DNA of 64,000 nucleotides from Promethearchaeota archaeon (GCA_048940765.1 JBHLOG010000002.1:20254-84253), one strand, 5' to 3'; positions 6,728 through 19,463 are shown, counted from the stretch's first letter. Made by a program: numbers and translations. Notes: generated by a model not told the origin, from the sequence alone.

Positions 6728-8068
6728 TTAATAGAATTCGCAATCAACCAAAAGTTGAGAAATATCCATAACTTTTATTGGAGAATGATCTTCATTTGCT
6801 ACTTGAAATAAATTGTTCTTACAGAAGACACAAGAACTAACTAACACTTCAGCACTAGTTTCTATCGCTTCTTTTAATCTATCTTCTCTTATTCGTATCA
6901 TACAAGCTCGAGTTTCAGCTAATCTGTCCCTACCCACTTCAACTGCAATATCACCATAAAGTGCCTTCACTCCTCCCCCAGCACCACAACACCAAGCCAT
7001 ATTTCGATTATGCTTCATCTCAAAGAGTTTTATTCCTTCAATCATTCTAATTAGTTCACGTGGTTCTTCATAAACTCCGCAATATCTACCTAAGTGACAT
7101 GGATCATGGTAAGTAATGAGTAGAGGGTCTTCTTTTGAGCGTTTTGTATATCTAATTTTAAGATTTTTTTCTTTTACAGTTTTTAGAACAAATTGGGTAA
7201 GATGATAAAGATCAAATTCAAGTTTATGATCTATTAATCTTGAATATTCGAGATTAAAAGTAGAAAAGCATCCAGAACATGAAAATACAACTTCTTTTAC
7301 TCCACTTTTTTTAACCATTTCATAATTATGTTTTACAAGTTTTAAGGCTTCATCCTCTAATCCTGTTCTAAATAAAACTGATCCGCAACATCTTTCTTCG
7401 GGAAAAAGAACAAATTCAATCCCTAATTTTTCTAAAACTTTGCTTGTTGCCGTGACTAACTCTTTATTTCTATAAGAGGAAGTACAACCAACAAAATAAC
7501 CAACTTTATAAGGTGTTTTTTTTATTGCAATATCAGAAGTATCTTTAGCACGTGAATATGCTTTAGCACCTTCTTCACATGACTGACGCCAATTAAATCT
7601 ATCAAGATGTTTTTCAAGAAAAGGATTATTATTTTCTAATATTGAGTTTTTAAGGATTTTTAACTTTTCTGGTACGGCTCCCTTTTTAATAACTTGTTTA
7701 CGGAAATTTTGAAAAACTTCTAGAGTGTCAACACCAACAGGACAAACCTCGTGACAATTTCCACATAACATACAGCGAAAAACGGAAGGAATGATTTCAT
7801 CTTTATCGAATTTAATATCTTTTCGATCCAAAGCTTTAATAATTCTATTACGACCACCGGCATAATCTGTCTCACTCCAAGACACATTATATACCTTACA
7901 AACATGGCGACAATATCCACAATGGGTACAACGCTCATAAGAATATTTTTCCTTCAGTGTTGAAGAAGCTTCAATAAGATTTTCTCTAGAAGGAGAAATC
8001 AACCCTGCAACAGGGGGACCAGAAGTTATTACATCCTTTAATTCCGACGACTCTTCACTATCATTCAT
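6728..8068 (-). CDS. Fe-S oxidoreductase, GlcF/HdrD-like (2x[4Fe-4S] + two CCG domains)
   Basis: CTHCGYCRHVC and CMLCGNCHEVCP cluster motifs, plus two cysteine-rich CCG-type regions (ERCCGS; YHDPCHLGR...WCCGAGGG). Confidence 0.8.
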   Translation of the reverse strand: MNDSEESSELKDVITSGPPVAGLISPSRENLIEASSTLKEKYSYERCTHCGYCRHVCKVYNVSWSETDYAGGRNRIIKALDRKDIKFDKDEIIPSVFRCMLCGNCHEVCPVGVDTLEVFQNFRKQVIKKGAVPEKLKILKNSILENNNPFLEKHLDRFNWRQSCEEGAKAYSRAKDTSDIAIKKTPYKVGYFVGCTSSYRNKELVTATSKVLEKLGIEFVLFPEERCCGSVLFRTGLEDEALKLVKHNYEMVKKSGVKEVVFSCSGCFSTFNLEYSRLIDHKLEFDLYHLTQFVLKTVKEKNLKIRYTKRSKEDPLLITYHDPCHLGRYCGVYEEPRELIRMIEGIKLFEMKHNRNMAWCCGAGGGVKALYGDIAVEVGRDRLAETRACMIRIREDRLKEAIETSAEVLVSSCVFCKNNLFQVANEDHSPIKVMDISQLLVDCEFY

Positions 8069-8191
8069 GTAATTATATCTCTTATCATTTATTGTTTTTC
8101 AATTGGGAATACTCTTAATTTTTATTAAATTTTATTATTATATTTTATTCTAATTTTCATTGAATTGATTTTTGAATTATTAATTTATTTT

Positions 8192-9571
8192 TTAAAATAA
8201 TTTATACAAGAATTTCGCTGTATTGAATAATAAAGATATCCTCCAGAATTTCATCTTAGCTTCAATTATTCTATATGAATTAAATAAGTGCTTGGGATCC
8301 AATTTATTTTTTAATAGTTTTTTCCTATTTACTTCATCACGTTTATATTTATGTAAATAGAAAGTATTAACAATTCCTATAGTGTAGAGCCTATCTCCTT
8401 GACTAAATACTCGCACTGATAAATCATGTAAAAATGCCTTTACTGCAAAGAATTCCCGAGTTTTATTAATGTCAGTTAAACCGAAAATTTTAACACGAGT
8501 CCATCCTTTCTCTCCTGAAATTGCATATGAAGCAGTTCGAAATTTGTATTTTTTCCTCTTTTTTACATAATGTTCAATAAAAGGCTCTAATCTCTCATCA
8601 GATATCCAGTACTCTTGAAATATTAAATTTCGTGTTGATAATCCAATAGATACCTCAGCATCGCTAATATCTCGCCATTTTTCCTTTAAATAGGAGTTTT
8701 CGATATCAAATGCATTCATTTTTGAAGCTATATTTTTAACCATTGATATGCTTTTTGATGTTTCTTCAGGATCATCATAAAATACTGCCCAGACTAACCA
8801 TTCCTGTTTTGGAAAATTGACATGTGAATATTTTTCAAAATTTCTTTCTGAAATTGAAAGGAAGAATGGCTTATTTGGAACTTCATCTTTAACTTTTGAA
8901 TAAAAGCTAAAAGCTTGGGTGAGAGAATTAAAACCATAACCAATTATTTCTAATGAAGTTTTGAGTGTGGTTACTGATAGTTCAACATTTGCAATAGCAC
9001 CATATATTCCATAAGTACCAACAATATCGTCAAGAGAGATTTCATCGTGAGACTCTCTTGAAATATTGACAATCGTACCGTCGGGTCGAACTAAATCTAG
9101 AGAAATAATTGAATCTTTCATCGAACCATATTTCAAAACACCAATCCCTGCTTTTCCAGGAGTAGCAATAAAACCACTTACACAAGAAGTTTTAAAGCTA
9201 GTTGGAAACACTTTCGGTTCAAGCCCTTGATCTGCAAGTGCTTCTATTAAATTCAACCAAGAAATTCCACTTCCAACCTTAACAGTCATTTTTTCCTTAT
9301 TTATTTCAAGAATTTTATTTATCCTGCGTACATCTATAATAACCCCTCCTTTTGAAGGTGTAGCTGAGGAAAAACAAGAAGTACCAGCAGCTCTAATTGT
9401 AACTGGAATACCTAATTCTCTACATTTTTTTATCGTCAAAGAAAGTTCTTGAGTATTTGCTGGACGAACAATATAACTTGCAAGATATTTTTTCTTAAAT
9501 TTATAATGATAGGATGGTAGTGATGTTAGATCAGCTGAAGCAGATTCGAGTTCATATGGATTAATACTCAC
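8192..9571 (-). CDS. FAD-linked oxidase (GlcD / D-lactate dehydrogenase-like)
   Basis: A PCMH-type FAD-binding N-domain (VRPANTQELSLTIKKCRELGIPVTIRAAGTS...GGVIIDVRRINKILEI). It is adjacent to the GlcF-like gene on the same strand. Confidence 0.8.
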   Translation of the reverse strand: MSINPYELESASADLTSLPSYHYKFKKKYLASYIVRPANTQELSLTIKKCRELGIPVTIRAAGTSCFSSATPSKGGVIIDVRRINKILEINKEKMTVKVGSGISWLNLIEALADQGLEPKVFPTSFKTSCVSGFIATPGKAGIGVLKYGSMKDSIISLDLVRPDGTIVNISRESHDEISLDDIVGTYGIYGAIANVELSVTTLKTSLEIIGYGFNSLTQAFSFYSKVKDEVPNKPFFLSISERNFEKYSHVNFPKQEWLVWAVFYDDPEETSKSISMVKNIASKMNAFDIENSYLKEKWRDISDAEVSIGLSTRNLIFQEYWISDERLEPFIEHYVKKRKKYKFRTASYAISGEKGWTRVKIFGLTDINKTREFFAVKAFLHDLSVRVFSQGDRLYTIGIVNTFYLHKYKRDEVNRKKLLKNKLDPKHLFNSYRIIEAKMKFWRISLLFNTAKFLYKLF

Positions 9572-9696: not shown

Positions 9697-10563
9697 TTAT
9701 GTAAATAAAAATCCTGATAAGAAAGCACCCCACCAACAAATTAACGTGATATATCCCGTAACTTTAGCTGGTTTACGCTCTGCAGCAATTCCAAACAACA
9801 TACTTAATAATCCTGTAAGTAAACCTAGACCTCCTAAAATTATATGAGTCCAATGAAAATCTAAAGAAAATGAAACCCAGATAGCAGGATTCTTCCATAT
9901 TAAAGTTAAAACATTTACAAGTGTTAATATCCAAGAAGATCCTGCTAAAATTCCATGAGTTTTAACAAATTTACTTTCATTTATTAATACTAATATTGTC
10001 CCGAGAGTTAGGAAAAGTAACGCTGGTAAGCCAAGAAACATTCCAAAATGATCAAAAATGTTAAAAGGAGCACGTGGAACTATAACACCTCCAACATTAA
10101 CATTAATCCTTTGGTAAGCAAAATTTATTTGACCACTTGCGTCATTCCCTGCAATTATGAAAATTAAGTTATAACTTTCCTCTGCTGGGGCTGTAATATT
10201 AAATTCTACAGTGATTGAATTACTTGATGGATCGAGATCATAAATAGAAGTTTCATTAATTCTTTCAGTAGTTGGTAATATTTCGAAAATATCATAAGAA
10301 GGCTCAAAATTTTGTTCTACCAGTCTTCCTGGAATTACTTGAATGAATACATTTGTACCAGTAGCAGTAACATTAAAAACTAGACTTGTTGAGGGATCTG
10401 TTAGAACATCTCCGGTAATTGTAGACTCAATTGTATATCCTGCTGAATCATGACATAAATCATGAGACATTCCATAGCCAGGTCTACCTGTTGCGTACAT
10501 AATTACCAACATCGGCAAAATAGATATAATTATTAAAAAAACTATAAGGGTTCTCTTATTCAT
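9697..10563 (-). CDS. Membrane protein: signal anchor, HxxCH motif, beta-rich exodomain, C-terminal 4-TM His-bearing domain
   Basis: An N-terminal TM is followed by GYGMSHDLCHDSAG (10450-10464 encodes HDLCH). Many NxT/S sequons. Four C-terminal helices have His at the helix ends (FDHF, KTHG, DFHWTH). It is a paralogue of ORF 16471-17148 in the N-terminal part. Confidence 0.7.
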   Translation of the reverse strand: MNKRTLIVFLIIISILPMLVIMYATGRPGYGMSHDLCHDSAGYTIESTITGDVLTDPSTSLVFNVTATGTNVFIQVIPGRLVEQNFEPSYDIFEILPTTERINETSIYDLDPSSNSITVEFNITAPAEESYNLIFIIAGNDASGQINFAYQRINVNVGGVIVPRAPFNIFDHFGMFLGLPALLFLTLGTILVLINESKFVKTHGILAGSSWILTLVNVLTLIWKNPAIWVSFSLDFHWTHIILGGLGLLTGLLSMLFGIAAERKPAKVTGYITLICWWGAFLSGFLFT

Positions 10564-11051: not shown

Positions 11052-11647
11052 ATGAGGTCAAATAGAAAAATTAAATCTTTATTAATTACATTAATAATAT
11101 TATCATCTATTATGGGATTCGCTTTCGCAAGAACCTCATCCCAAATGCTAGAGACTTAAAAATTTATAAGATTTTTGCATTTGATCCTGTTGGTAATATA
11201 AATTCCTTTCAAGACAATATTACAGTTATAGACACAAACAGTCTAACTTTTTTTAATTTAACGAAATCTGATGAATCTATTATAATAGGGCAATCTATAG
11301 ATATTCAAGTGGAAATTACAGAATTCTCTGATATCAGTAATGTTTTCATAGAATTGGAGAGTACAAACCATTCGATGGTTCATACTATCGGATATACGTA
11401 GGAACATAAAAATTGGATTCTAAAAATTACAGGCGAATTATCCTTTACAATACACGCAAAGGATAACAATAATGTTTGGAATTTAATAGCGGGGACAATT
11501 TTAGTTACAGAGTAATCACCAGATTTAACCAGAATACCGATGTTTAAAATGACTGAAATTTTAGTAATAACTGGATTGATTGGATTAATAACTGCTGGAA
11601 TATTATTGATAATAACAACAACAAAAATCAAAGGATTTTTTGCTTAA
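11052..11647 (+). pseudogene. Decayed gene for a signal-peptide / C-terminally anchored surface protein
   Basis: ATG 11052 gives MRSNRKIKSLLITLIILSSIMGFAFA...ET then TAA. The reading continues in another frame (IYKIFAFDPVGNINSF...) through in-frame TAG (11399) and TAA (11513) to a TM anchor (ILVITGLIGLITAGILLII) and stop at 11647. Confidence 0.55.
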
Positions 11648-11740: not shown

Positions 11741-13459
11741 GTGGTTATTATGAAGTTTGAGGAAATAACGCGAAAAAAAATATTTATTATTTATTTAGGA
11801 ATGATTTTTGGATTTTTTGTAGCTCTACCATTAATATTTAACTTAATTGAATACAATTTTAGAGTTCTCCTTATATCAACAATGGGTAATTACATAATCT
11901 TCATTCTTATCATAATTTTGATAGTTGATGCTTTTTATTTGATTTTTAAACGTCAAAATCATTATTTTTTTTCATTTATTAACATGTGGTTAACAATACT
12001 CTTATTTTCACTAATGATATATAGTTTCCTAAATAATATCTATGAAATAGTATATGTTATGAATTACAGCAATTCTACACTTCCACTAATATATAAAATA
12101 GTTGCAATCTGGGCGGGAGAAGAAGGGTCGATTATGACATGGATGGTATTTAATTCTATCATAATAAATTTCTATCGAAATAAGAATCAAAACAAAGATG
12201 ATGTTGTATTTATACGTTCTGTTATTATTTCATTATTTATATCTATAATATTTTTAATTATCTTATTTTCATTAAATCTATTTGAAGTTGATTCACCCCC
12301 CGTTTTTCCTAATGGTCAAGGATTAAACCCATTATTAATATCTCCATTTATGATATGGCACCCGTTCTTTACATTTATTGCTTACGCCATTTTCTTAGTC
12401 CCCTTTACTATTGTAATTGCAGAAACAATTACTCGTAAAAGGAAATTGTTGGGGGAATACCAATTGAATTTTTATAATTTTTCTTTAAAATTTGGATGGC
12501 TAGTTCTCACTTCAGGCATTGGTTTAGGCGCATATTGGGCTAAAATTGCATTAACTCCTTGGGGTAGATATTGGGGTTGGGATCCTGTTGAAACAGTTTC
12601 ACTTATTCCATGGTTTTTAATAACAGCTTTCTTTCACACTATTATCTTCAAAAAGAAAAATCCAATATTAATAAAAATAAATGTGAGTTTGATTTTTGCA
12701 TCAATAGTGTTTTCAACATTGATTACAAGAGGCGGGGGGTTAAATTCTCTTCATGCGTTTACTGGAGGTGCTGAGTTAATTACATGGGTAATAATTTTAG
12801 GTCTTATTTTGGTCTTTCTTTCCCTTTATGTAATCTATATTGTATTAGATTATTCAATGGGAGAGTATCGAAATAAAAAGCTTTTTTTTGATTACTTGAG
12901 TTATTTACTTTTATTTGCTTTAGCTTTGGTGTGTATTTTTGGTCTTTTAATTCCACCATTTACCTTTTTCCTTTCAAATTTTCTCCCAATAAATATTATT
13001 TTAATCGATATAGATTATTTTATCATAACAACCTTAATTTTATCTACAGGTTTAGCTATATCACTTACATTTTGTTCATTATGGGAATATTTCGAGATTA
13101 AGTGGATAGGATTAGTTATACTTATAGGATTTTCAATTCAATCAGTGCTTTCGTTTATACTTGTAATTACCTCTAACATATGGATAAATCCTGTTTTATT
13201 TATTTATTTAATATCATTATTTTCTTCCCTATTCAAATTGGTAAAAAATTTCAATATGAAAAAGGGAGTAAAATACTTTTTCAGGTTGAATTCAAAAACA
13301 ATAATTCATGCAGGGATTTCCTTAATCCTTGCTGGATTTTTAATGAGTTCGAATTATCAAGACTTTTTTTTCATTCCAGGATTCGTACTGCTATTAATAG
13401 GAATAATTCCTTCAATTATTATCACTTTTTTTCCAATGAAAAAAGTAATTGAGGCGTAA
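11741..13459 (+). CDS. ccmF: Cytochrome c maturation protein CcmF (heme lyase component)
   Basis: AIWAGEEGSIMTW, LNPLLISPFMIWHP, the Trp-rich motif WGRYWGWDPVETVSLIPW, and conserved His in AFFHT and NSLHAF. Polytopic membrane protein. Confidence 0.85.
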   Translation: MVIMKFEEITRKKIFIIYLGMIFGFFVALPLIFNLIEYNFRVLLISTMGNYIIFILIIILIVDAFYLIFKRQNHYFFSFINMWLTILLFSLMIYSFLNNIYEIVYVMNYSNSTLPLIYKIVAIWAGEEGSIMTWMVFNSIIINFYRNKNQNKDDVVFIRSVIISLFISIIFLIILFSLNLFEVDSPPVFPNGQGLNPLLISPFMIWHPFFTFIAYAIFLVPFTIVIAETITRKRKLLGEYQLNFYNFSLKFGWLVLTSGIGLGAYWAKIALTPWGRYWGWDPVETVSLIPWFLITAFFHTIIFKKKNPILIKINVSLIFASIVFSTLITRGGGLNSLHAFTGGAELITWVIILGLILVFLSLYVIYIVLDYSMGEYRNKKLFFDYLSYLLLFALALVCIFGLLIPPFTFFLSNFLPINIILIDIDYFIITTLILSTGLAISLTFCSLWEYFEIKWIGLVILIGFSIQSVLSFILVITSNIWINPVLFIYLISLFSSLFKLVKNFNMKKGVKYFFRLNSKTIIHAGISLILAGFLMSSNYQDFFFIPGFVLLLIGIIPSIIITFFPMKKVIEA

Positions 13460-13610
13460 AAATCTATTCAATATCTTATTTTTTAATTTTATTCCATTTT
13501 AAGAATTTATAATTTTTTAACTTAATAAATATATTAAAGCAAAGTTTTGAATAATTAAACACTTATTAATAGTCAATATATAAATAGTTTAAGCTCTCAC
13601 AATTGAGATC

Positions 13611-14324
13611 ATGTTCACATCAAATAACACAATAATAACTTGTAATAATGTCTCAAAACAATTTGGATATTTTTTTGCGTTAAGAAAAATTTCTTTTAAA
13701 ATTAGAGAAAATACGGTTTTTGGAATTGCGGGGGCAAATGGAGCAGGTAAAACAACATTAATTAAGATTTTATCGGGATTGCTCAAACCAACTTTTGGTG
13801 AAATTATACTCAATGGAATGAATTATGAGGATAATTCTGACATTATAAAACAAAATATTGGAATTAATACTGATGAATCTTTTCTATTTCAAGAATTAAC
13901 TATTTTTGAAAATTTAAAATATTATGCTAATTTGCATTTGAATTTCGAGAAAAAGAATCTTGAGACTAAAATTAAGCATTATTGCAATAAATTCAATTTA
14001 ACAGATTGGATCAACGAACCTGTTAGAATTTTATCTCATGGAATGAAACAAAAAGTAGAATTAATTAGAGTCTTAATACATGATCCATCAATTCTATTCT
14101 TGGACGAGCCATTTTCGGGTTTAGATTACAATGCAACCCAAATGTTAATTAATTTTTTTAGAGAAATAAAAAATGATAAAAATATATCGATAATTCTTAC
14201 AACGCATAAAATTGATGTATTCCAGCAACTTTGTGATGAATTAATCATTTTAAAGAAAGGAAGAATCAGTAAAGCCTTTTCACGTGATGAATTAAATAAG
14301 TATGAAATTAAGTCATATTTTTAG
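13611..14324 (+). CDS. ccmA: ABC transporter ATP-binding protein, CcmA-like heme exporter subunit
   Basis: Walker A GANGAGKTT, signature LSHGMKQK, Walker B ILFLDEPFSGLD. Located between ccmF and ccmB. Confidence 0.8.
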   Translation: MFTSNNTIITCNNVSKQFGYFFALRKISFKIRENTVFGIAGANGAGKTTLIKILSGLLKPTFGEIILNGMNYEDNSDIIKQNIGINTDESFLFQELTIFENLKYYANLHLNFEKKNLETKIKHYCNKFNLTDWINEPVRILSHGMKQKVELIRVLIHDPSILFLDEPFSGLDYNATQMLINFFREIKNDKNISIILTTHKIDVFQQLCDELIILKKGRISKAFSRDELNKYEIKSYF

Positions 14325-14333
14325 GGGGTATAT

Positions 14334-15062
14334 TTGTTGAAAAATGAGAAAATAAAATTCAAATCAAAATTAAGATTACTGAAAGTAATATTATCTAAAG
14401 ATATTAAATCAGAACTCCGACAAATTAATGATTTATTTTCAATTTTTCTTTTTGATATAATCTCAATCTTCATATTTTCGTCAGTTTATAATTTCGGAAC
14501 TCAATATCAGAATATGCCGATGGAAATTTTTGTTATTGAAAACTGGCTTATAATTTTTTTTACACTCATTTATATTATGACTAAACTCTTCGTAAAGGAG
14601 AAAGATACTGGAACTTTAGGAGGGCTTATTTCTTCCCCCGCATCAGCAAACTTAATTCTTATTAGTAAAACCATTTTTTGCTTTATCTTATTGAGTTTCG
14701 TTGAAATCATTTTATTTCTTTTCAGTTTTTTTATATCAGTACCATCGATTAGCAATTTTAATGCAAATCAGTTATTGATTTATTTAAGTCTTGGAGTATT
14801 ATTACCAACATTAGATTTATCTATATGCGGGAGCTTTGTTTCTGCTTTTTCGATGTATGTTAAAAATAAATCCTTTATTTTACCAATTTTGTTATTTCCT
14901 TTAATTCTACCAATTATTACTCCTATCATATCGATAAATATAAAAATTTTAGAAGGAGAATTAATATCAAATCTATATTACGAAATACTATTTTTTAGTG
15001 CGCATATAATTCTCATGAGCTCAATTATAGCATTAACTTCGGAAGCTCTTTTGTATGATTAA
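14334..15062 (+). CDS. ccmB: CcmB-like heme exporter permease
   Basis: A ~6-TM, 242-aa protein 9 nt after ccmA. Assigned by size and synteny. Confidence 0.6.
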   Translation: MLKNEKIKFKSKLRLLKVILSKDIKSELRQINDLFSIFLFDIISIFIFSSVYNFGTQYQNMPMEIFVIENWLIIFFTLIYIMTKLFVKEKDTGTLGGLISSPASANLILISKTIFCFILLSFVEIILFLFSFFISVPSISNFNANQLLIYLSLGVLLPTLDLSICGSFVSAFSMYVKNKSFILPILLFPLILPIITPIISINIKILEGELISNLYYEILFFSAHIILMSSIIALTSEALLYD

Positions 15063-15069
15063 ATAAGAT

Positions 15070-15417
15070 CTAACTACATTGTGTAAGAATCTGGTTTGCA
15101 TTTAAAACCAGAGATGAACTAAATACTCCTTTTACAACAACTTGAATTCCATTTTCCATATCAGTTGAAGGAGTTAAACCATTTATATCTATATAAATAC
15201 TATGTCCACTTTCAGTTAAATTAAAATCACTACCAGCAAATCCTTGTACAATACCTATAACTTGAATCTCTTTATTTTCATATTTGGAAGGATTCAAGGC
15301 AACTTGAGAAACTGTGAGATAAGGACGTGCAGTTGATGTAAGCAATGTAATTATAACAATAATTGAGATAATAATTCCTGCGATTGCAATAATTTTTGTT
15401 TTTTTCAAATTCATCAT
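15070..15417 (-). CDS. ccmE: CcmE-like heme chaperone, Cys-type, ending ...LTQCS
   Basis: An N-terminal TM anchor plus an OB-fold-sized domain (IQVIGIVQG...GIQVVVKGVF...LNANQILTQCS). Cys (15076-15078) occupies the position of the heme-binding His of bacterial CcmE. Confidence 0.7.
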   Translation of the reverse strand: MMNLKKTKIIAIAGIIISIIVIITLLTSTARPYLTVSQVALNPSKYENKEIQVIGIVQGFAGSDFNLTESGHSIYIDINGLTPSTDMENGIQVVVKGVFSSSLVLNANQILTQCS

Positions 15418-15421
15418 CTAC

Positions 15422-15574
15422 TTACTTCAAATTTTTCTCCAAATTTTTCATTCTTTTCAATGTTTTTCTTATTCTAAGTTTGGGATATAAAATTAGAATT
15501 ATAATAACTGCCCAAAATAAAATATAACTAATTGTTATTGTTATTAAATCTTGATCAAAATATTGTAATGACAT
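15422..15574 (-). CDS. ccmD: CcmD-like small membrane protein (50 aa), not in the ORF track
   Basis: MSLQYFDQDLITITISYILFWAVIIILILYPKLRIRKTLKRMKNLEKNLK has a single TM plus a basic tail. It starts 5 nt after the ccmC stop and ends 4 nt before the ccmE start, matching the canonical ccmC-D-E order. Confidence 0.5.
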   Translation of the reverse strand: MSLQYFDQDLITITISYILFWAVIIILILYPKLRIRKTLKRMKNLEKNLK

Positions 15575-15579
15575 TTAAA

Positions 15580-16311
15580 TTACTCCTCTATCAACCTTTT
15601 TTGTATAATTTTATCTAGTTTTTCTTTTGCTTTATCTAATTCTCCTAATCTTTGAATAACATAAAAAAATAATATGGTTATTCCAATTAAATTAAATAAC
15701 AACATGACTATTTTCACTGGATCCCAATAAATATTACCAGGCTCTCCAGGAGTTGGATTAATTAGGGGATGCAAGCTTGTAAATATAATTGCCGAGAAAT
15801 AACTTAAGGGAATTGTAGGAAATAAGGCAATACCTAAAATTGAAGATAATTTTGCTCTTTTTTCTTTATCTTCAACCATACTCCTAAAAATTAAATATGC
15901 TAAATAACAAAGAAGTAATATTAAAGTCATAGTCTGTCTACCATCACTCCATTGCCAATAAATATTGTTATAATCTCCAGAAGTAGAATTGTACCATAAA
16001 GATCCAGTAATTAATGTAAATGCAGTAAAAAATACTCCAACTATTATGCTATTGGTGCCCAACCGATTCCATTTTAATTCTCGTTTATTCAGATAGAGAA
16101 TATGAAATAGGAAACTAAGACCGTATGATAAATATGCAAGCCATGCTCCCGAAACATGGTAAAAAAAAATTATATATACTATTCGATTGGGACTTCCCCA
16201 TACAATAAGGTTAAAGGAAGTCAATATTAAAATTAGAAATAAATTAATCACCAAGATTGTCAATGAAATAATTAATAGGAAGTTAGTCCTGAATAATTTT
16301 GGAATATTCAT
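15580..16311 (-). CDS. ccmC: Cytochrome c maturation protein CcmC
   Basis: 243 aa, 6 TM. Conserved His in FFYHVSGAW and TSLHP. The Trp-rich motif is IYWQWSDGRQT. Confidence 0.8.
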   Translation of the reverse strand: MNIPKLFRTNFLLIISLTILVINLFLILILTSFNLIVWGSPNRIVYIIFFYHVSGAWLAYLSYGLSFLFHILYLNKRELKWNRLGTNSIIVGVFFTAFTLITGSLWYNSTSGDYNNIYWQWSDGRQTMTLILLLCYLAYLIFRSMVEDKEKRAKLSSILGIALFPTIPLSYFSAIIFTSLHPLINPTPGEPGNIYWDPVKIVMLLFNLIGITILFFYVIQRLGELDKAKEKLDKIIQKRLIEE

Positions 16312-16470: not shown

Positions 16471-17148
16471 TTACAATTCTTTTTTCCTCATTCGCTTTCT
16501 TACTGTTAATATTAAAACAGTTGTTACCGCTACACTGCTACCAATAATGATTGTTAAAATGCCTCCCGAAATAGTATCTGTGCCTGTACCAGTAGTGCCT
16601 GTAACAGTAATCTCGATTAAACTTTCAACATAAGTAATATTATAATAAGATCCATCCGTCTGATTCATTCCTGCTATTGCCACCGCATAAAGATCATATG
16701 TTCCAGCTTTGCTAGGAGCAATAAGGGCAAATTTATTATCATCGTCAGAAGGATCATAAGATCCATAACTATCTACCTGTTCTCGTCTATTTAATGTTTG
16801 GTTAGCAAGAGATGATGTAAATAACCCGTTATCACCTTGATATCCTGGTACGCCTAAAGTGAATCTACCAGCATAAGGAGCTAAATTAGCCTCTGTAAAG
16901 TTAAGGATATCTACTTCCAAGGTAAAATGCTGTAAGGGAGATAAATCTCCAGTCACATTAATAGATAGTACCAAAGTTCCATTTACACTAGCTTTAGTAT
17001 TAGCTGAATTATGACACATACCATGAGTTCCACCTTCTCCATCGTTAATCCATCTATATAGATATTCTTGATATCCCACAGCTGCACCTATAATTCCTAT
17101 AAGTAAGGCTGAAAAAATCAATAGTGAAAGAATTTTAGTTTTTCTCAA
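16471..17148 (-). CDS. Exported, C-terminally anchored protein with an HxxCH motif (candidate non-canonical heme protein)
   Basis: A signal/anchor helix is followed by EGGTHGMCHNSAN (17011-17025 encodes HGMCH). Then comes a beta-rich glycosylatable domain, a TGTGT linker, a TM and a basic tail. It lies upstream of ccmC on the same strand. Confidence 0.7.
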   Translation of the reverse strand: MRKTKILSLLIFSALLIGIIGAAVGYQEYLYRWINDGEGGTHGMCHNSANTKASVNGTLVLSINVTGDLSPLQHFTLEVDILNFTEANLAPYAGRFTLGVPGYQGDNGLFTSSLANQTLNRREQVDSYGSYDPSDDDNKFALIAPSKAGTYDLYAVAIAGMNQTDGSYYNITYVESLIEITVTGTTGTGTDTISGGILTIIIGSSVAVTTVLILTVRKRMRKKEL

Positions 17149-17467: not shown

Positions 17468-17713
17468 TTAAATAAGTATTTCATAAAATCTTATTCTTTT
17501 ATCTCTTTTATCACCATATTTTCGAATAAAATTTAGATCATATAACTTTCTTAAAGAATAAACGACTGTCCTCTTCGGTAGAAGTGATCTTCTCATAATG
17601 TTTTCTTGAGTTAATGGTCCATTTCTTTTCAGTAGATATAAAATAAATTTACAAGAGGGAGGTAATGAGATTAATCTTTGTTCTGTTAAAGAATCTTTTA
17701 TTATATTCATCAT
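17468..17713 (-). CDS. Small winged-helix transcriptional regulator (MarR/TrmB-like)
   Basis: FILYLLKRNGPLTQENIMRRSLLPKRTVVYSLRKLYDLNFIRK is an HTH-wing pattern. 81 aa. Confidence 0.55.
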   Translation of the reverse strand: MMNIIKDSLTEQRLISLPPSCKFILYLLKRNGPLTQENIMRRSLLPKRTVVYSLRKLYDLNFIRKYGDKRDKRIRFYEILI

Positions 17714-17930
17714 TAATCCATTCTTCTATTATCATTTAATACCTTTAAAATTCGAAAAATTAAACCTTTATGTTTATTAAATTGAAGACATCGTTTTAAC
17801 TTTTATGAAATGTGAGGATTTTAAACATTAATTCAACTTTCAGTTTCAAGATATAACATTATCCTGAATAAAGTTTCAGAACACAGTTTATTATAATATA
17901 ATTTATATAAGATCAATGTTTTGGTCTATA

Positions 17931-18494
17931 TTAGAAATTACCACATCCATTACATTTCCCATCAAGAAATGCGGCACATGCTTTACATATATTTTCACAT
18001 TTATGTTCTTTGCTTTCACCACTAAAAAGCTTAATTGGAAGAAATTTTGGTACTAATACTTCAGATGCAAATATCGTTGCAGAATGTAGTATTCCTTCTT
18101 TGTTGGTTGGACCACAATAATTGATATATCTACGTAAAACGTCAATATCTTGGCCTATTACTCCAAAGATCAAGTTGTATTGCCCAGCCACATGAGCTAA
18201 TAAAAAAACTCTGGGACATTCCGCATAAGCATCAATAATTTTTTGTACTTCATTATAGCTTCTCATTTCAATTAAAATAAAAGCAATATAATAATTTAAG
18301 CTCTTAGGACTTATATTTCCTTGAACCTTTAGAACTCCTGAGTCCTCTAATTTTGTAATTCTCTTTGCAATACCTGCATGGCTCATTGTTTCTTGATTTG
18401 ACTTTAATACAATTTTACTTAAAGAACTTAAACTTTCACGACCATTTTCAAATAAAGATTTAAGAATCTGCTTGTCAATTCGATCCAAAGTCAT
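17931..18494 (-). CDS. Lrp/AsnC-family regulator with a C-terminal 5-Cys motif
   Basis: N-terminal HTH (LDRIDKQILKSLFENGRESLSSLSK...GIAKRITKLEDSGVL), a RAM-like middle part, and the C-terminus KCENICKACAAFLDGKCNGCGNF. Confidence 0.75.
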   Translation of the reverse strand: MTLDRIDKQILKSLFENGRESLSSLSKIVLKSNQETMSHAGIAKRITKLEDSGVLKVQGNISPKSLNYYIAFILIEMRSYNEVQKIIDAYAECPRVFLLAHVAGQYNLIFGVIGQDIDVLRRYINYCGPTNKEGILHSATIFASEVLVPKFLPIKLFSGESKEHKCENICKACAAFLDGKCNGCGNF

Positions 18495-18609
18495 AATTAT
18501 ATTATTAGAAACGTTAATATAAAAAAGGATTCATTATATTTTGTGAATTCAAATAATTACACTAATCAACTACCTTTTAGTTTCATTTTACAACAATTAT
18601 TTATTCAAA

Positions 18610-18622
18610 GTTTCAATTTGAA
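18610..18622. promoter_or_regulatory. TTTCAA-T-TTGAAA inverted repeat in the divergent Lrp-paralogue intergenic region
   Basis: Read directly. A second one-mismatch copy, TATCAA-T-TTGAAA, sits at 18884-18896, 4 nt before ATG 18900. Confidence 0.3.
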
Positions 18623-18899
18623 AACCACACATATTTATTATATATGATAGATAAACTATTATTTATCAATTTAATTAGAAAAACAATAATAATAACAAGG
18701 CATTATATAAATGAAAAATTAATTATTGGACATCAAATCTAATTAAAGGTTTACTTATAAATATAATATTTCTTAATAGAAAATTGTAAAACGTACATCA
18801 AATTTTGAAATATTGTCGAGCTAACTTTTTATAAACGACAAATTTTAAAAATTGGTAATTAAGATCTAATTAATTAAATTAAGTATCAATTTGAAAATT

Positions 18900-19463
18900 A
18901 TGCTATTAGATAATATTGATAAACAGATTTTATTTGAATTGTTCAAAGAAGGACGTCAAAGTTTAACAAACTTGGAAAAAGTTATATATAAATCAGGTGA
19001 TGAAACAATGAGCCATACAGGTATTGCAAAGAGAATTACGAAATTAGAGGACTCAGAAGTTCTAAAGGTTCAAGCGAATACAAATATCAATACGCTCCAA
19101 TATAAATCTCTATTTCTACTAATCGAGATGAGTAATTATGAGGAAGTACAAAATATAATTAAAGCTTATCAAGATTGCCCACGAATATTTTTATTAGCTC
19201 AGGTAACAGGTCAATATAATTTAATATTAGGAATTATAGGGCAAAATATTGATGTTCTACACAGATATATTAATTACTGTGGACCCACGAATAAAAAGGG
19301 GATACTTCACTCCGCTACTATATTCGTATCTGATTTTATCACCCCTAAGTATTTGCCAATTAATCTTTTCAGCCAAGACAGTAAAGAAGAAAAATGTGGA
19401 AATATATGTAGTGACTGTGCTGCCTATCTTGATGGGAAGTGTAATGGATGTGGTTCTTTTTAA
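18900..19463 (+). CDS. Lrp/AsnC-family regulator with a C-terminal 5-Cys motif (paralogue of 17931-18494)
   Basis: MLLDNIDKQILFELFKEGRQSL... aligns end to end with the divergent paralogue, by eye about two thirds identical. C-terminus KCGNICSDCAAYLDGKCNGCGSF. ATG 18900 is preferred over TTG 18891 by alignment. Confidence 0.75.
   Translation: MLLDNIDKQILFELFKEGRQSLTNLEKVIYKSGDETMSHTGIAKRITKLEDSEVLKVQANTNINTLQYKSLFLLIEMSNYEEVQNIIKAYQDCPRIFLLAQVTGQYNLILGIIGQNIDVLHRYINYCGPTNKKGILHSATIFVSDFITPKYLPINLFSQDSKEEKCGNICSDCAAYLDGKCNGCGSF

Follow-up and report, generated by a model that had tools for sequence, protein, structure and literature searches.

An apparently remodeled System I cytochrome c maturation island with candidate single-cysteine substrates in a Loki-type Asgard archaeon

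A six-gene cytochrome c maturation (ccm) cluster lies at positions 11741-16311 of a 64,000-nt stretch of a Promethearchaeota archaeon genome (GCA_048940765.1, JBHLOG010000002.1:20254-84253), hereafter the window. The cluster is best explained as a functional, lineage-specific derivative of the streamlined archaeal System I* (CcmABCEF), its genes and those of its own substrates sharing one conserved island of about 13 kb. A dedicated machine of this kind would attach scavenged heme, by a single thioether bond, to exported proteins that have one Cys. We regard this explanation as a whole, single-thioether attachment included, as moderately probable. The genome assembly amounts to 4.04 Mb in 280 contigs (29% G+C) and is 95% complete with 5% contamination. 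Profile searches of the genome found one CcmF, one CcmC and no second system.

The original prediction described a complete System I set in which ccmF, ccmA and ccmB converge on ccmC, a ccmD-like gene and ccmE. Both the set and the layout hold. The open reading frame (ORF) map of the window contains all six ORFs, with 7 nt (15063-15069) between the stop codons of ccmB and ccmE as predicted, and hidden Markov model (HMM) searches with Pfam and NCBIfam profiles identify CcmABC(D)EF:

11741-13459, + strand: ccmF, short Loki type, 572 aa, heme lyase core (PF01578, 87 bits; TIGR00353 nrfE/CcmF, E 1e-41)
13611-14324, + strand: ccmA, ATP-binding cassette (ABC) ATPase subunit (PF00005, 111 bits)
14334-15062, + strand: ccmB, ABC membrane subunit (PF03379 CcmB, 42 bits, above cut-off; syntenic in relatives)
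15070-15417, - strand: ccmE variant, 115 aa, membrane anchor and OB-type domain (PF03100, 33 bits)
15422-15574, - strand: ccmD-like gene, 50 aa, one transmembrane (TM) helix and basic tail (PF04995, 22.6 bits, E 1e-4)
15580-16311, - strand: ccmC, 243 aa (PF01578, 64 bits; TIGR01191, E 3e-19)

The catalytic residues are in place. The window's CcmF aligns to Thermus thermophilus CcmF (6zmq, E 7e-25) and has P-His1 at H207 (IWHP), the WWD motif at 274-284 (WGRYWGWDPVE), TM-His1 at H299 (AFFHT) and P-His2 at H338 (SLHAF). A fourth conserved His, TM-His2 at H523 (IIHAG), can be added to those listed in the original prediction, all of whose CcmF and CcmC motifs are present. The WWD motif and all four His are conserved across 14 aligned short and long CcmF. 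CcmC has YHV (H52), the WWD-like motif YWQWSDGRQT (WQWSDGRQT at 119-127) and SLHP (H181), all of which line up with long-type Asgard CcmC. Sequence searches of the PDB with CcmC and CcmE gave no significant match, so the residue mapping of these two proteins rests on family HMMs and Asgard alignments. CcmA carries Walker A at residue 41, the signature motif at 141 and Walker B at 161, and the position of its gene is kept in 23 loci. The ccmD-like product falls slightly below the PF04995 cut-off (22.6 vs 25.6 bits), but CcmD matches were obtained for 14/14 of its orthologues (best E 4e-6), and a gene of 45-59 aa always sits between ccmC and ccmE in the fetched loci. The closest CcmE and CcmF homologues are labelled Lokiarchaeota or Promethearchaeota, with a few other Asgard labels, and the 309 close CcmF homologues are all Asgard-labelled or unlabelled sediment sequences. 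NCBI names the CcmF "CcsA" and gives the flanking candidate substrates no name.

Conservation of the cluster points to a working system. Loki-type CcmF (about 570 aa, 48-82% identity) occurs in 27 other species of two genera (27/134 family genomes) and never has internal stops; the loss-of-function lesions in orthologues that would suggest a relic were thus looked for and not seen. Against two relatives, the ratio of nonsynonymous to synonymous substitution rates (dN/dS) ranges from 0.09 to 0.44 across the six ccm genes and the two flanking proteins (0.12-0.17 for ccmB, about 0.1 for ccmC), i.e., they are under purifying selection. Across 23 fetched loci the order is GlcF-GlcD-HxxCH288 <> CcmF-[large HxxCH protein]-CcmA-CcmB <> CcmE-CcmD-CcmC-HxxCH225 (one or two copies)-MarR-Lrp-Lrp, and an Mvh hydrogenase operon comes next in 11 of them. 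Four genomes of the same genus without ccm (G191, G185, G179 and G183; loci L091-L094) keep the Mvh operon and are without the whole block from GlcF to Lrp. The block therefore behaves as one accessory island, and the MarR and Lrp genes, which are missing along with it, belong to the island.

Two components of the machine itself are altered. The window's CcmE terminates ...ILTQCS-COOH, with the codon for Cys114 at 15076-15078. This Cys falls on the Cys of QCPSKY(E) in CcmE from other Asgard families, and truncation at this point means that the heme-ligand Tyr and the tail are gone. The Cys is invariant in 95/95 clusters of CcmE homologues. The protein stops one residue after it in 91 of these clusters and two residues after it in the other four, and the ending is (I/V)LTQCS-COOH in 83. 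Short CcmF is missing a block of some 100 residues that, in all long-type Asgard CcmF aligned, separates the TM-His2 helix from the last helix. The TIGR00353 match of the window's CcmF covers profile positions 2-452 of 578. PF16327 (CcmF_C) found no match in four short-type CcmF, and matched two of the three long-type Asgard CcmF tested. The missing block is the periplasmic beta-stranded "cap" that canonical CcmF has over the active site (PMC10663686); short CcmF is one polypeptide without this C-terminal cap domain. Both alterations, as far as the compared sequences go, are fixed in the Loki-type lineage only.

What such a system matures is suggested by the proteins on either side of it. Among ORFs of at least 100 aa, only two in the genome have a Cys-His pair within 35 residues of an N-terminal anchor, and both flank the ccm cluster:

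16471-17148, - strand: candidate substrate 1, exported, C-terminally anchored immunoglobulin (Ig)-like protein, 225 aa, sole Cys in THGMCH (C45-H46)
9697-10563, - strand: candidate substrate 2 (HxxCH288), 288 aa, exodomain with SHDLCH (C37-H38) fused to a four-TM (4-TM) module

The suggestion that HxxCH proteins are the matured product thus stands, with these two as the best candidates. The Cys-His pair is invariant in both families and often includes the protein's only Cys, and an upstream His lies 2-4 residues before it. In the 225-aa family, C45 and H46 are invariant in 25 aligned members, and the gene adjoins ccmC in 22 loci. An AlphaFold2 model of the window's protein is a beta-sandwich (predicted local distance difference test score, pLDDT, 80). 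Many family members end in I-P-G-F/Y, a hydrophobic helix and a basic tail, like the archaeal PGF-CTERM archaeosortase signal, and the window's copy has T-I-S-G-G in place of I-P-G-F/Y; the type of anchor therefore varies within the family. In the 4-TM module of the 288-aa protein, H203 and H240 are invariant and H172 is near-invariant. The module, possibly a small cytochrome of the b type, is also found by itself, as proteins of 130-250 aa, in numerous genomes of the two Asgard families, including some that have no ccm.

The 288-aa family tracks the machine closely. Its full-length form is present in 27/28 CcmF-positive genomes of the window's family, the exception having ccmF at a contig end, and in 3/107 CcmF-negative ones. 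Two of these three are contig-end cases, one with ccmCEBA adjoining. In a second Asgard family (f31), the 288-aa homologues are confined to the five genera in which ccmF is present too. The corresponding site reads C-x2-5-C-H in each of the 28 full-length f31 orthologues; 11 have CxxCH, and the rest have Cx3CH, Cx4CH or Cx5CH. By homology, this is therefore a site for heme c. Its first Cys has been replaced by His or lost in the Loki lineage, a change that coincides with the CcmE truncation, the loss of the CcmF domain and a rarer CcdA.

Standard components are missing from the whole genome, not just from the window, where the original prediction had found no CcmG, CcmH or DsbD-like gene. The best PF03918 (CcmH) match in the genome has E 0.3, and CcmH was found in 0/29 ccm-bearing relatives. 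Across the whole genome, TIGR00385 (CcmG) matches only two thioredoxins without signal peptides, and the best PF02683 (DsbD/CcdA) match is a membrane protein with E 0.02. All of these candidates were rejected: the CcmH match is a cytoplasmic AIR-synthase-like protein, the two thioredoxins are cytoplasmic, and the membrane protein has no Cys. The original prediction placed the missing thiol-redox genes at the head of its case. The absence itself stands genome-wide, but it is not unusual for archaea (PMC9084895; PMC3601427) and is not fixed in relatives, where a thioredoxin (Trx)-CcdA module occurs in 4-5 of 29. What is truly unusual, and goes beyond the original prediction, is that heme synthesis is lacking from the whole genome, that CcmF has lost a domain and that orthologues carry CxnCH.

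An ORF census found no exported CxxCH protein in the window, as predicted, or in the 4.04 Mb genome. The motif occurs in 40 ORFs, with at most two copies in each and none of them multi-heme, and only 1/40 has an N-terminal hydrophobic segment. The sole ORF to pass the crude "exported CxxCH" filter lies outside the window (C208:884-3118, - strand) and encodes a 744-aa surface protein with parallel beta-helix repeats. It was rejected as a cytochrome because its CxxCH is in a cytoplasmic, multi-Cys zinc-ribbon tail behind the TM anchor. The search for CcmG, CcmH and ordinary CxxCH cytochromes elsewhere in the genome, which would make this a standard system, thus came back empty.

Heme synthesis is also missing. 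Profile searches found neither HemB nor HemC in the window's genome, so the organism presumably makes no heme and the cofactor would have to be scavenged. Candidates for AhbD in this genome were generic radical S-adenosylmethionine (SAM)/SPASM proteins far below the cut-off and were rejected. HemB is absent from 134/135 genomes of the same family; by this count, nearly all ccm carriers would have to scavenge heme. The sole family genome with HemB (G227, 1/135) has a complete Ahb operon on the same contig as its ccm island and 13 kb from it:

L079:2614-12283 (contig C2:45913-55582): Ahb heme operon of G227, with genes for HemB, HemL, AhbD, AhbA, AhbB-SirC, HemA, HemC, CobA-HemD and AhbC

The closeness of this operon to the ccm island ties the island to heme. 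The operon may be an ancestral state that was kept or may have been gained together with the island.

The following mechanism can be proposed. CcmABCD would load scavenged heme onto the C-terminal Cys114 of the membrane-anchored chaperone CcmE. CcmF, with an accessory heme between TM-His1 and TM-His2, would take the CcmE-bound heme into its WWD/P-His site and pass it to exported proteins whose only conserved Cys is in an N-proximal H-x2-4-C-H site. In the product, one thioether bond would hold the heme, and the neighboring His would serve as its axial ligand. A single thioether gives an alpha band near 553 nm, against about 550 nm for two thioethers and 556 nm for heme b. A one-Cys site cannot form an internal disulfide, and thus thiol reduction by CcmG, CcmH and CcdA would not be needed. 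A CcmE that has lost its xxxY tail and a CcmF that has lost its periplasmic cap may both be co-adaptations to this one-Cys substrate class. The mature products would be a surface-anchored Ig-like protein and an exodomain/di-His 4-TM protein, the latter sharing an operon with a GlcD/GlcF-type dehydrogenase. They could form an electron path across the membrane and at the surface, linked to that dehydrogenase.

By its components the cluster belongs to System I. It has the CcmAB ABC module, CcmC with WWD and two flanking His, and CcmF with WWD and four His. It differs in having no CcmF_C domain (PF16327), no CcmH/CcmG/DsbD and no exported CxxCH apocytochromes, the candidates having H-x2-4-C-H instead. 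The closest described variant is System I*, a name that comes with the Desulfovibrio system, itself already tested in E. coli (PMC3601427; also Allen et al., 2006, as cited in PMC3601427). Its traits are a CcmE Cys in CxxxY, no CcmH, a CcmD that is uniformly absent from archaea, and dispensable CcmG/CcdA (PMC3601427; PMC9084895; PMC4429474). Archaeal CcmABCEF systems without CcmH, in which CcmG/CcdA are dispensable, are already published, and CcmABCEF is sufficient in Methanosarcina acetivorans (PMC9084895; PMC3601427 for the former). The window's cluster is alike in having CcmA, B, C, E and F, in lacking CcmH/CcmI, in not requiring CcmG/CcdA, and in keeping the WWD motif and His ligands of CcmF and CcmC. 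It also has the CcmE Cys in place of His, the window's C114 falling on the Cys of CPSKY. Unlike System I*, the window's CcmE stops one residue after the Cys and so has no CxxxY (Tyr, rarely Phe), a motif called universal in archaeal CcmE (PMC9084895). A CcmD-like gene is present here, whereas CcmD is reported as uniformly absent from archaea (PMC9084895). The window's CcmF is a single polypeptide without the periplasmic domain. Finally, all of the genes are in one island with the substrates, the genome has no CxxCH substrates, and the host is a heme auxotroph.

The long-type ccm systems of other Asgard archaea (families f31, f16 and f32; loci L071 and L073-L077) have the same gene set, and their CcmE Cys aligns with that of the window's CcmE. 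Next to ccmF there, too, are homologues of the 288-aa substrate and of GlcD/GlcF (L073). Their CcmE, in contrast, ends CPSKY(E), their CcmF is 660-810 aa with the periplasmic block, and their substrate orthologues have two Cys (C-x2-5-C-H). CcdA is common in f31 (56/86 genomes) and was above cut-off in 5/29 ccm-bearing f1 genomes, counts that are not independent since the genomes are related.

Lyases dedicated to unusual substrates are known. NrfEFG for CXXCK and the System II lyase for CX15CH are encoded beside their variant-motif substrates (PMC3601427), and CcmF2 of anaerobic methanotrophic archaea (ANME) adjoins MHC-B (PMC9012536). The likeness is a CcmF/CcsA-family lyase beside a presumed unusual substrate. 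These lyases, however, work alongside a general system, on two-Cys or Lys-ligand variants, whereas the genome here has no other system and the motif contains a single Cys. Heme c held by one thioether, from a Cys next to the axial His, is found in the (A/F)XXCH mitochondrial cytochromes c and c1 of Euglenozoa (PMC8262978). These are eukaryotic proteins with unrelated folds, and the divergent system that matures them has no relation to Ccm; the analogy is one of chemistry only. In the searchable literature, we found no paper that names CcmF together with any Loki-type name, and co-mentions of CcmE and Asgard archaea were only incidental. A recent Asgard survey assigns heme synthesis and cytochrome c to Heimdallarchaeia, which it sets against Lokiarchaeia in this respect.

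Several points weigh against single-thioether maturation by a dedicated System I. To our knowledge, a System I that prefers XXXCH sites would be unprecedented. With single-Cys cytochromes, the Ccm system of E. coli performs poorly, and a CcmE-heme-cytochrome adduct becomes trapped (PMC3268396). A heme auxotroph with a system of the heme-export type would need a route for heme uptake. A fold search with the model of the 225-aa protein returned generic Ig-like/antibody matches only and no known cytochrome fold. The spacing of the upstream His varies, and this His is missing in a divergent LGCHP subtype of the island (G229, G189 and G244). One genome (G273) has a member of the 288-aa family but no detectable ccmF, and the relatives compared throughout are not independent samples. 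The CxxCH census used simple ORF calling with a crude hydrophobicity filter, and about 5% of the genome is missing. The Trx-CcdA module, in or near the island in 4-5/29 relatives, makes "one cysteine, no thiol reduction" a tendency and not a rule.

The incomplete, slightly contaminated assembly and the heuristic census leave space for an ordinary archaeal System I* that matures CxxCH cytochromes which were unassembled or missed, the flanking Cys-His proteins then not being heme proteins and their position coincidental. Such a system would be in good company, since archaeal CcmABCEF without CcmH, CcmG or CcdA does mature normal CxxCH cytochromes (PMC9084895; PMC4429474). We give it little credence. 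It would have to accommodate 4.04 Mb without an exported CxxCH ORF, Cys-His proteins that are syntenic with ccm in 23 loci and co-occur with it in two Asgard families, and f31 orthologues that carry CxnCH at exactly the same site, as well as CcmE and CcmF alterations that appear fixed in this lineage only. Alternatively, the system may move heme without ligating it, carrying scavenged heme to the outer face, where it would be inserted non-covalently (for example, into EB_dh/DOMON-type proteins or the di-His 4-TM module), or serving heme capture or detoxification, with the Cys-His binding a metal or having another role. The lack of heme synthesis in 134/135 family genomes agrees with this, as do the loss of the Tyr ligand and tail from CcmE, the invariant TM His of the 288-aa protein, which are typical of b-heme sites, and the EB_dh heme-b-type domains in the G227 and G249 islands. 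Yet CcmF, the ligation enzyme, is under purifying selection and keeps WWD and all four His, the Cys of CcmE is invariant, orthologues have a classical CxxCH at the site, and the single Cys of most substrates is exactly the residue before His; heme movement without ligation is thus unlikely.

The island could also be a decaying relic, left after the loss of cytochromes and heme synthesis. The genome has neither heme synthesis nor CxxCH cytochromes, one island gene in the window is a deletion remnant, and the island is patchy (27/134 family genomes). Decay is, however, hard to square with six ccm genes that are intact in 27 species and have dN/dS of 0.09-0.44, with invariant catalytic residues, and with a Cys-terminal CcmE ending kept across 95 clusters. 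A relic is very improbable and already largely refuted. We therefore retain the dedicated, single-thioether machine as the explanation of choice, at the strength given above.

The other genes of the window's island are as follows:

6728-9571, - strand: GlcF-like (CCG/2x[4Fe-4S]) and GlcD-like (flavin adenine dinucleotide, FAD) dehydrogenase genes (PF02754, Fer4 families, PF01565)
11052-11647, + strand: remnant of a third, large HxxCH repeat-rich surface protein gene (tblastn)
17468-19463: MarR-type gene and two Lrp/AsnC paralogues with Cys-rich tails (Pfam helix-turn-helix, HTH, matches; syntenic in most loci)

The GlcF and GlcD genes are downstream of the 288-aa gene on the same strand. The order GlcF-GlcD-HxxCH288 is kept in 23 loci and is also found in f31 (L073), and the dehydrogenase probably supplies or accepts the electrons. 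The MarR and Lrp/AsnC genes are probably the island's regulators. The Lrp paralogues, which were weighed as AhbA/B siroheme decarboxylases, gave generic HTH matches only. The remnant is matched by a 955-aa protein of G203 at residues 1-30 and 789-926 only. It keeps the signal peptide, the last repeat and the anchor, but a deletion has removed the middle repeats and the region with the heme motif. At least nine relatives have an intact large HxxCH gene in the island (800-1500 aa), between ccmF and ccmA or upstream of ccmF.

The Trx-CcdA module of relatives is a conserved set of three genes, for a 108-aa protein, a membrane-anchored thioredoxin (CPYC) and CcdA. It is inside the ccm island in G227 and G229, and elsewhere in the genome in G207 and G187:

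L051:10957-12647: Trx-CcdA module of G227
L087:537-2229: Trx-CcdA module of G229
L090:8486-10341 and L088:4955-6733: further Trx-CcdA module loci

The window's genome has no homologue of any of the three proteins. The thiol-redox arm is optional in this lineage and was lost in the window's genome. Exported, C-terminally anchored EB_dh proteins (ethylbenzene-dehydrogenase gamma/DOMON-like, heme-binding) are encoded in the islands of G227 (L051:519-1658 and L051:3286-4533) and G249 (L066:2233-3417). One of the two in G227 carries CATFCH, a Cx3CH site. This is the one case within the family in which the module is found with a two-cysteine substrate; none was found near the module in G229, G187 or G207. 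In G189, an island of the divergent LGCHP subtype has a tandem duplicate of ccmF (L070:9047-12627, contig C1), the copies being 48% and 44% identical to the window's, and the same closed contig has a second HxxCH288-GlcF-CcmA-CcmB locus (L085).

Loki-type Asgard archaea are usually drawn as cytochrome-free fermenters. We put forward, tentatively, that they carry hidden single-Cys c-type cytochromes at the surface and in the membrane, made by a remodeled System I from the heme of partners or surroundings. Connected to a cytoplasmic GlcD/GlcF-type dehydrogenase, they would give electrons a route out of (or into) the cell. One-Cys heme proteins of this kind would be overlooked by standard CxxCH screens. 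If the proposal is true, this would be the first natural System I that prefers XXXCH sites, and a natural experiment in which parts System I can shed when its substrate has one Cys, namely the CcmE Tyr and tail, the CcmF cap and thiol reduction. About a fifth of the species in the Loki-type family, themselves unable to make heme, may use heme proteins that are invisible to CxxCH surveys. Asgard syntrophy would then include a dependence on heme and a direct exchange of electrons, which bears on the partner dependence of these archaea and on syntrophy models of eukaryote origin.

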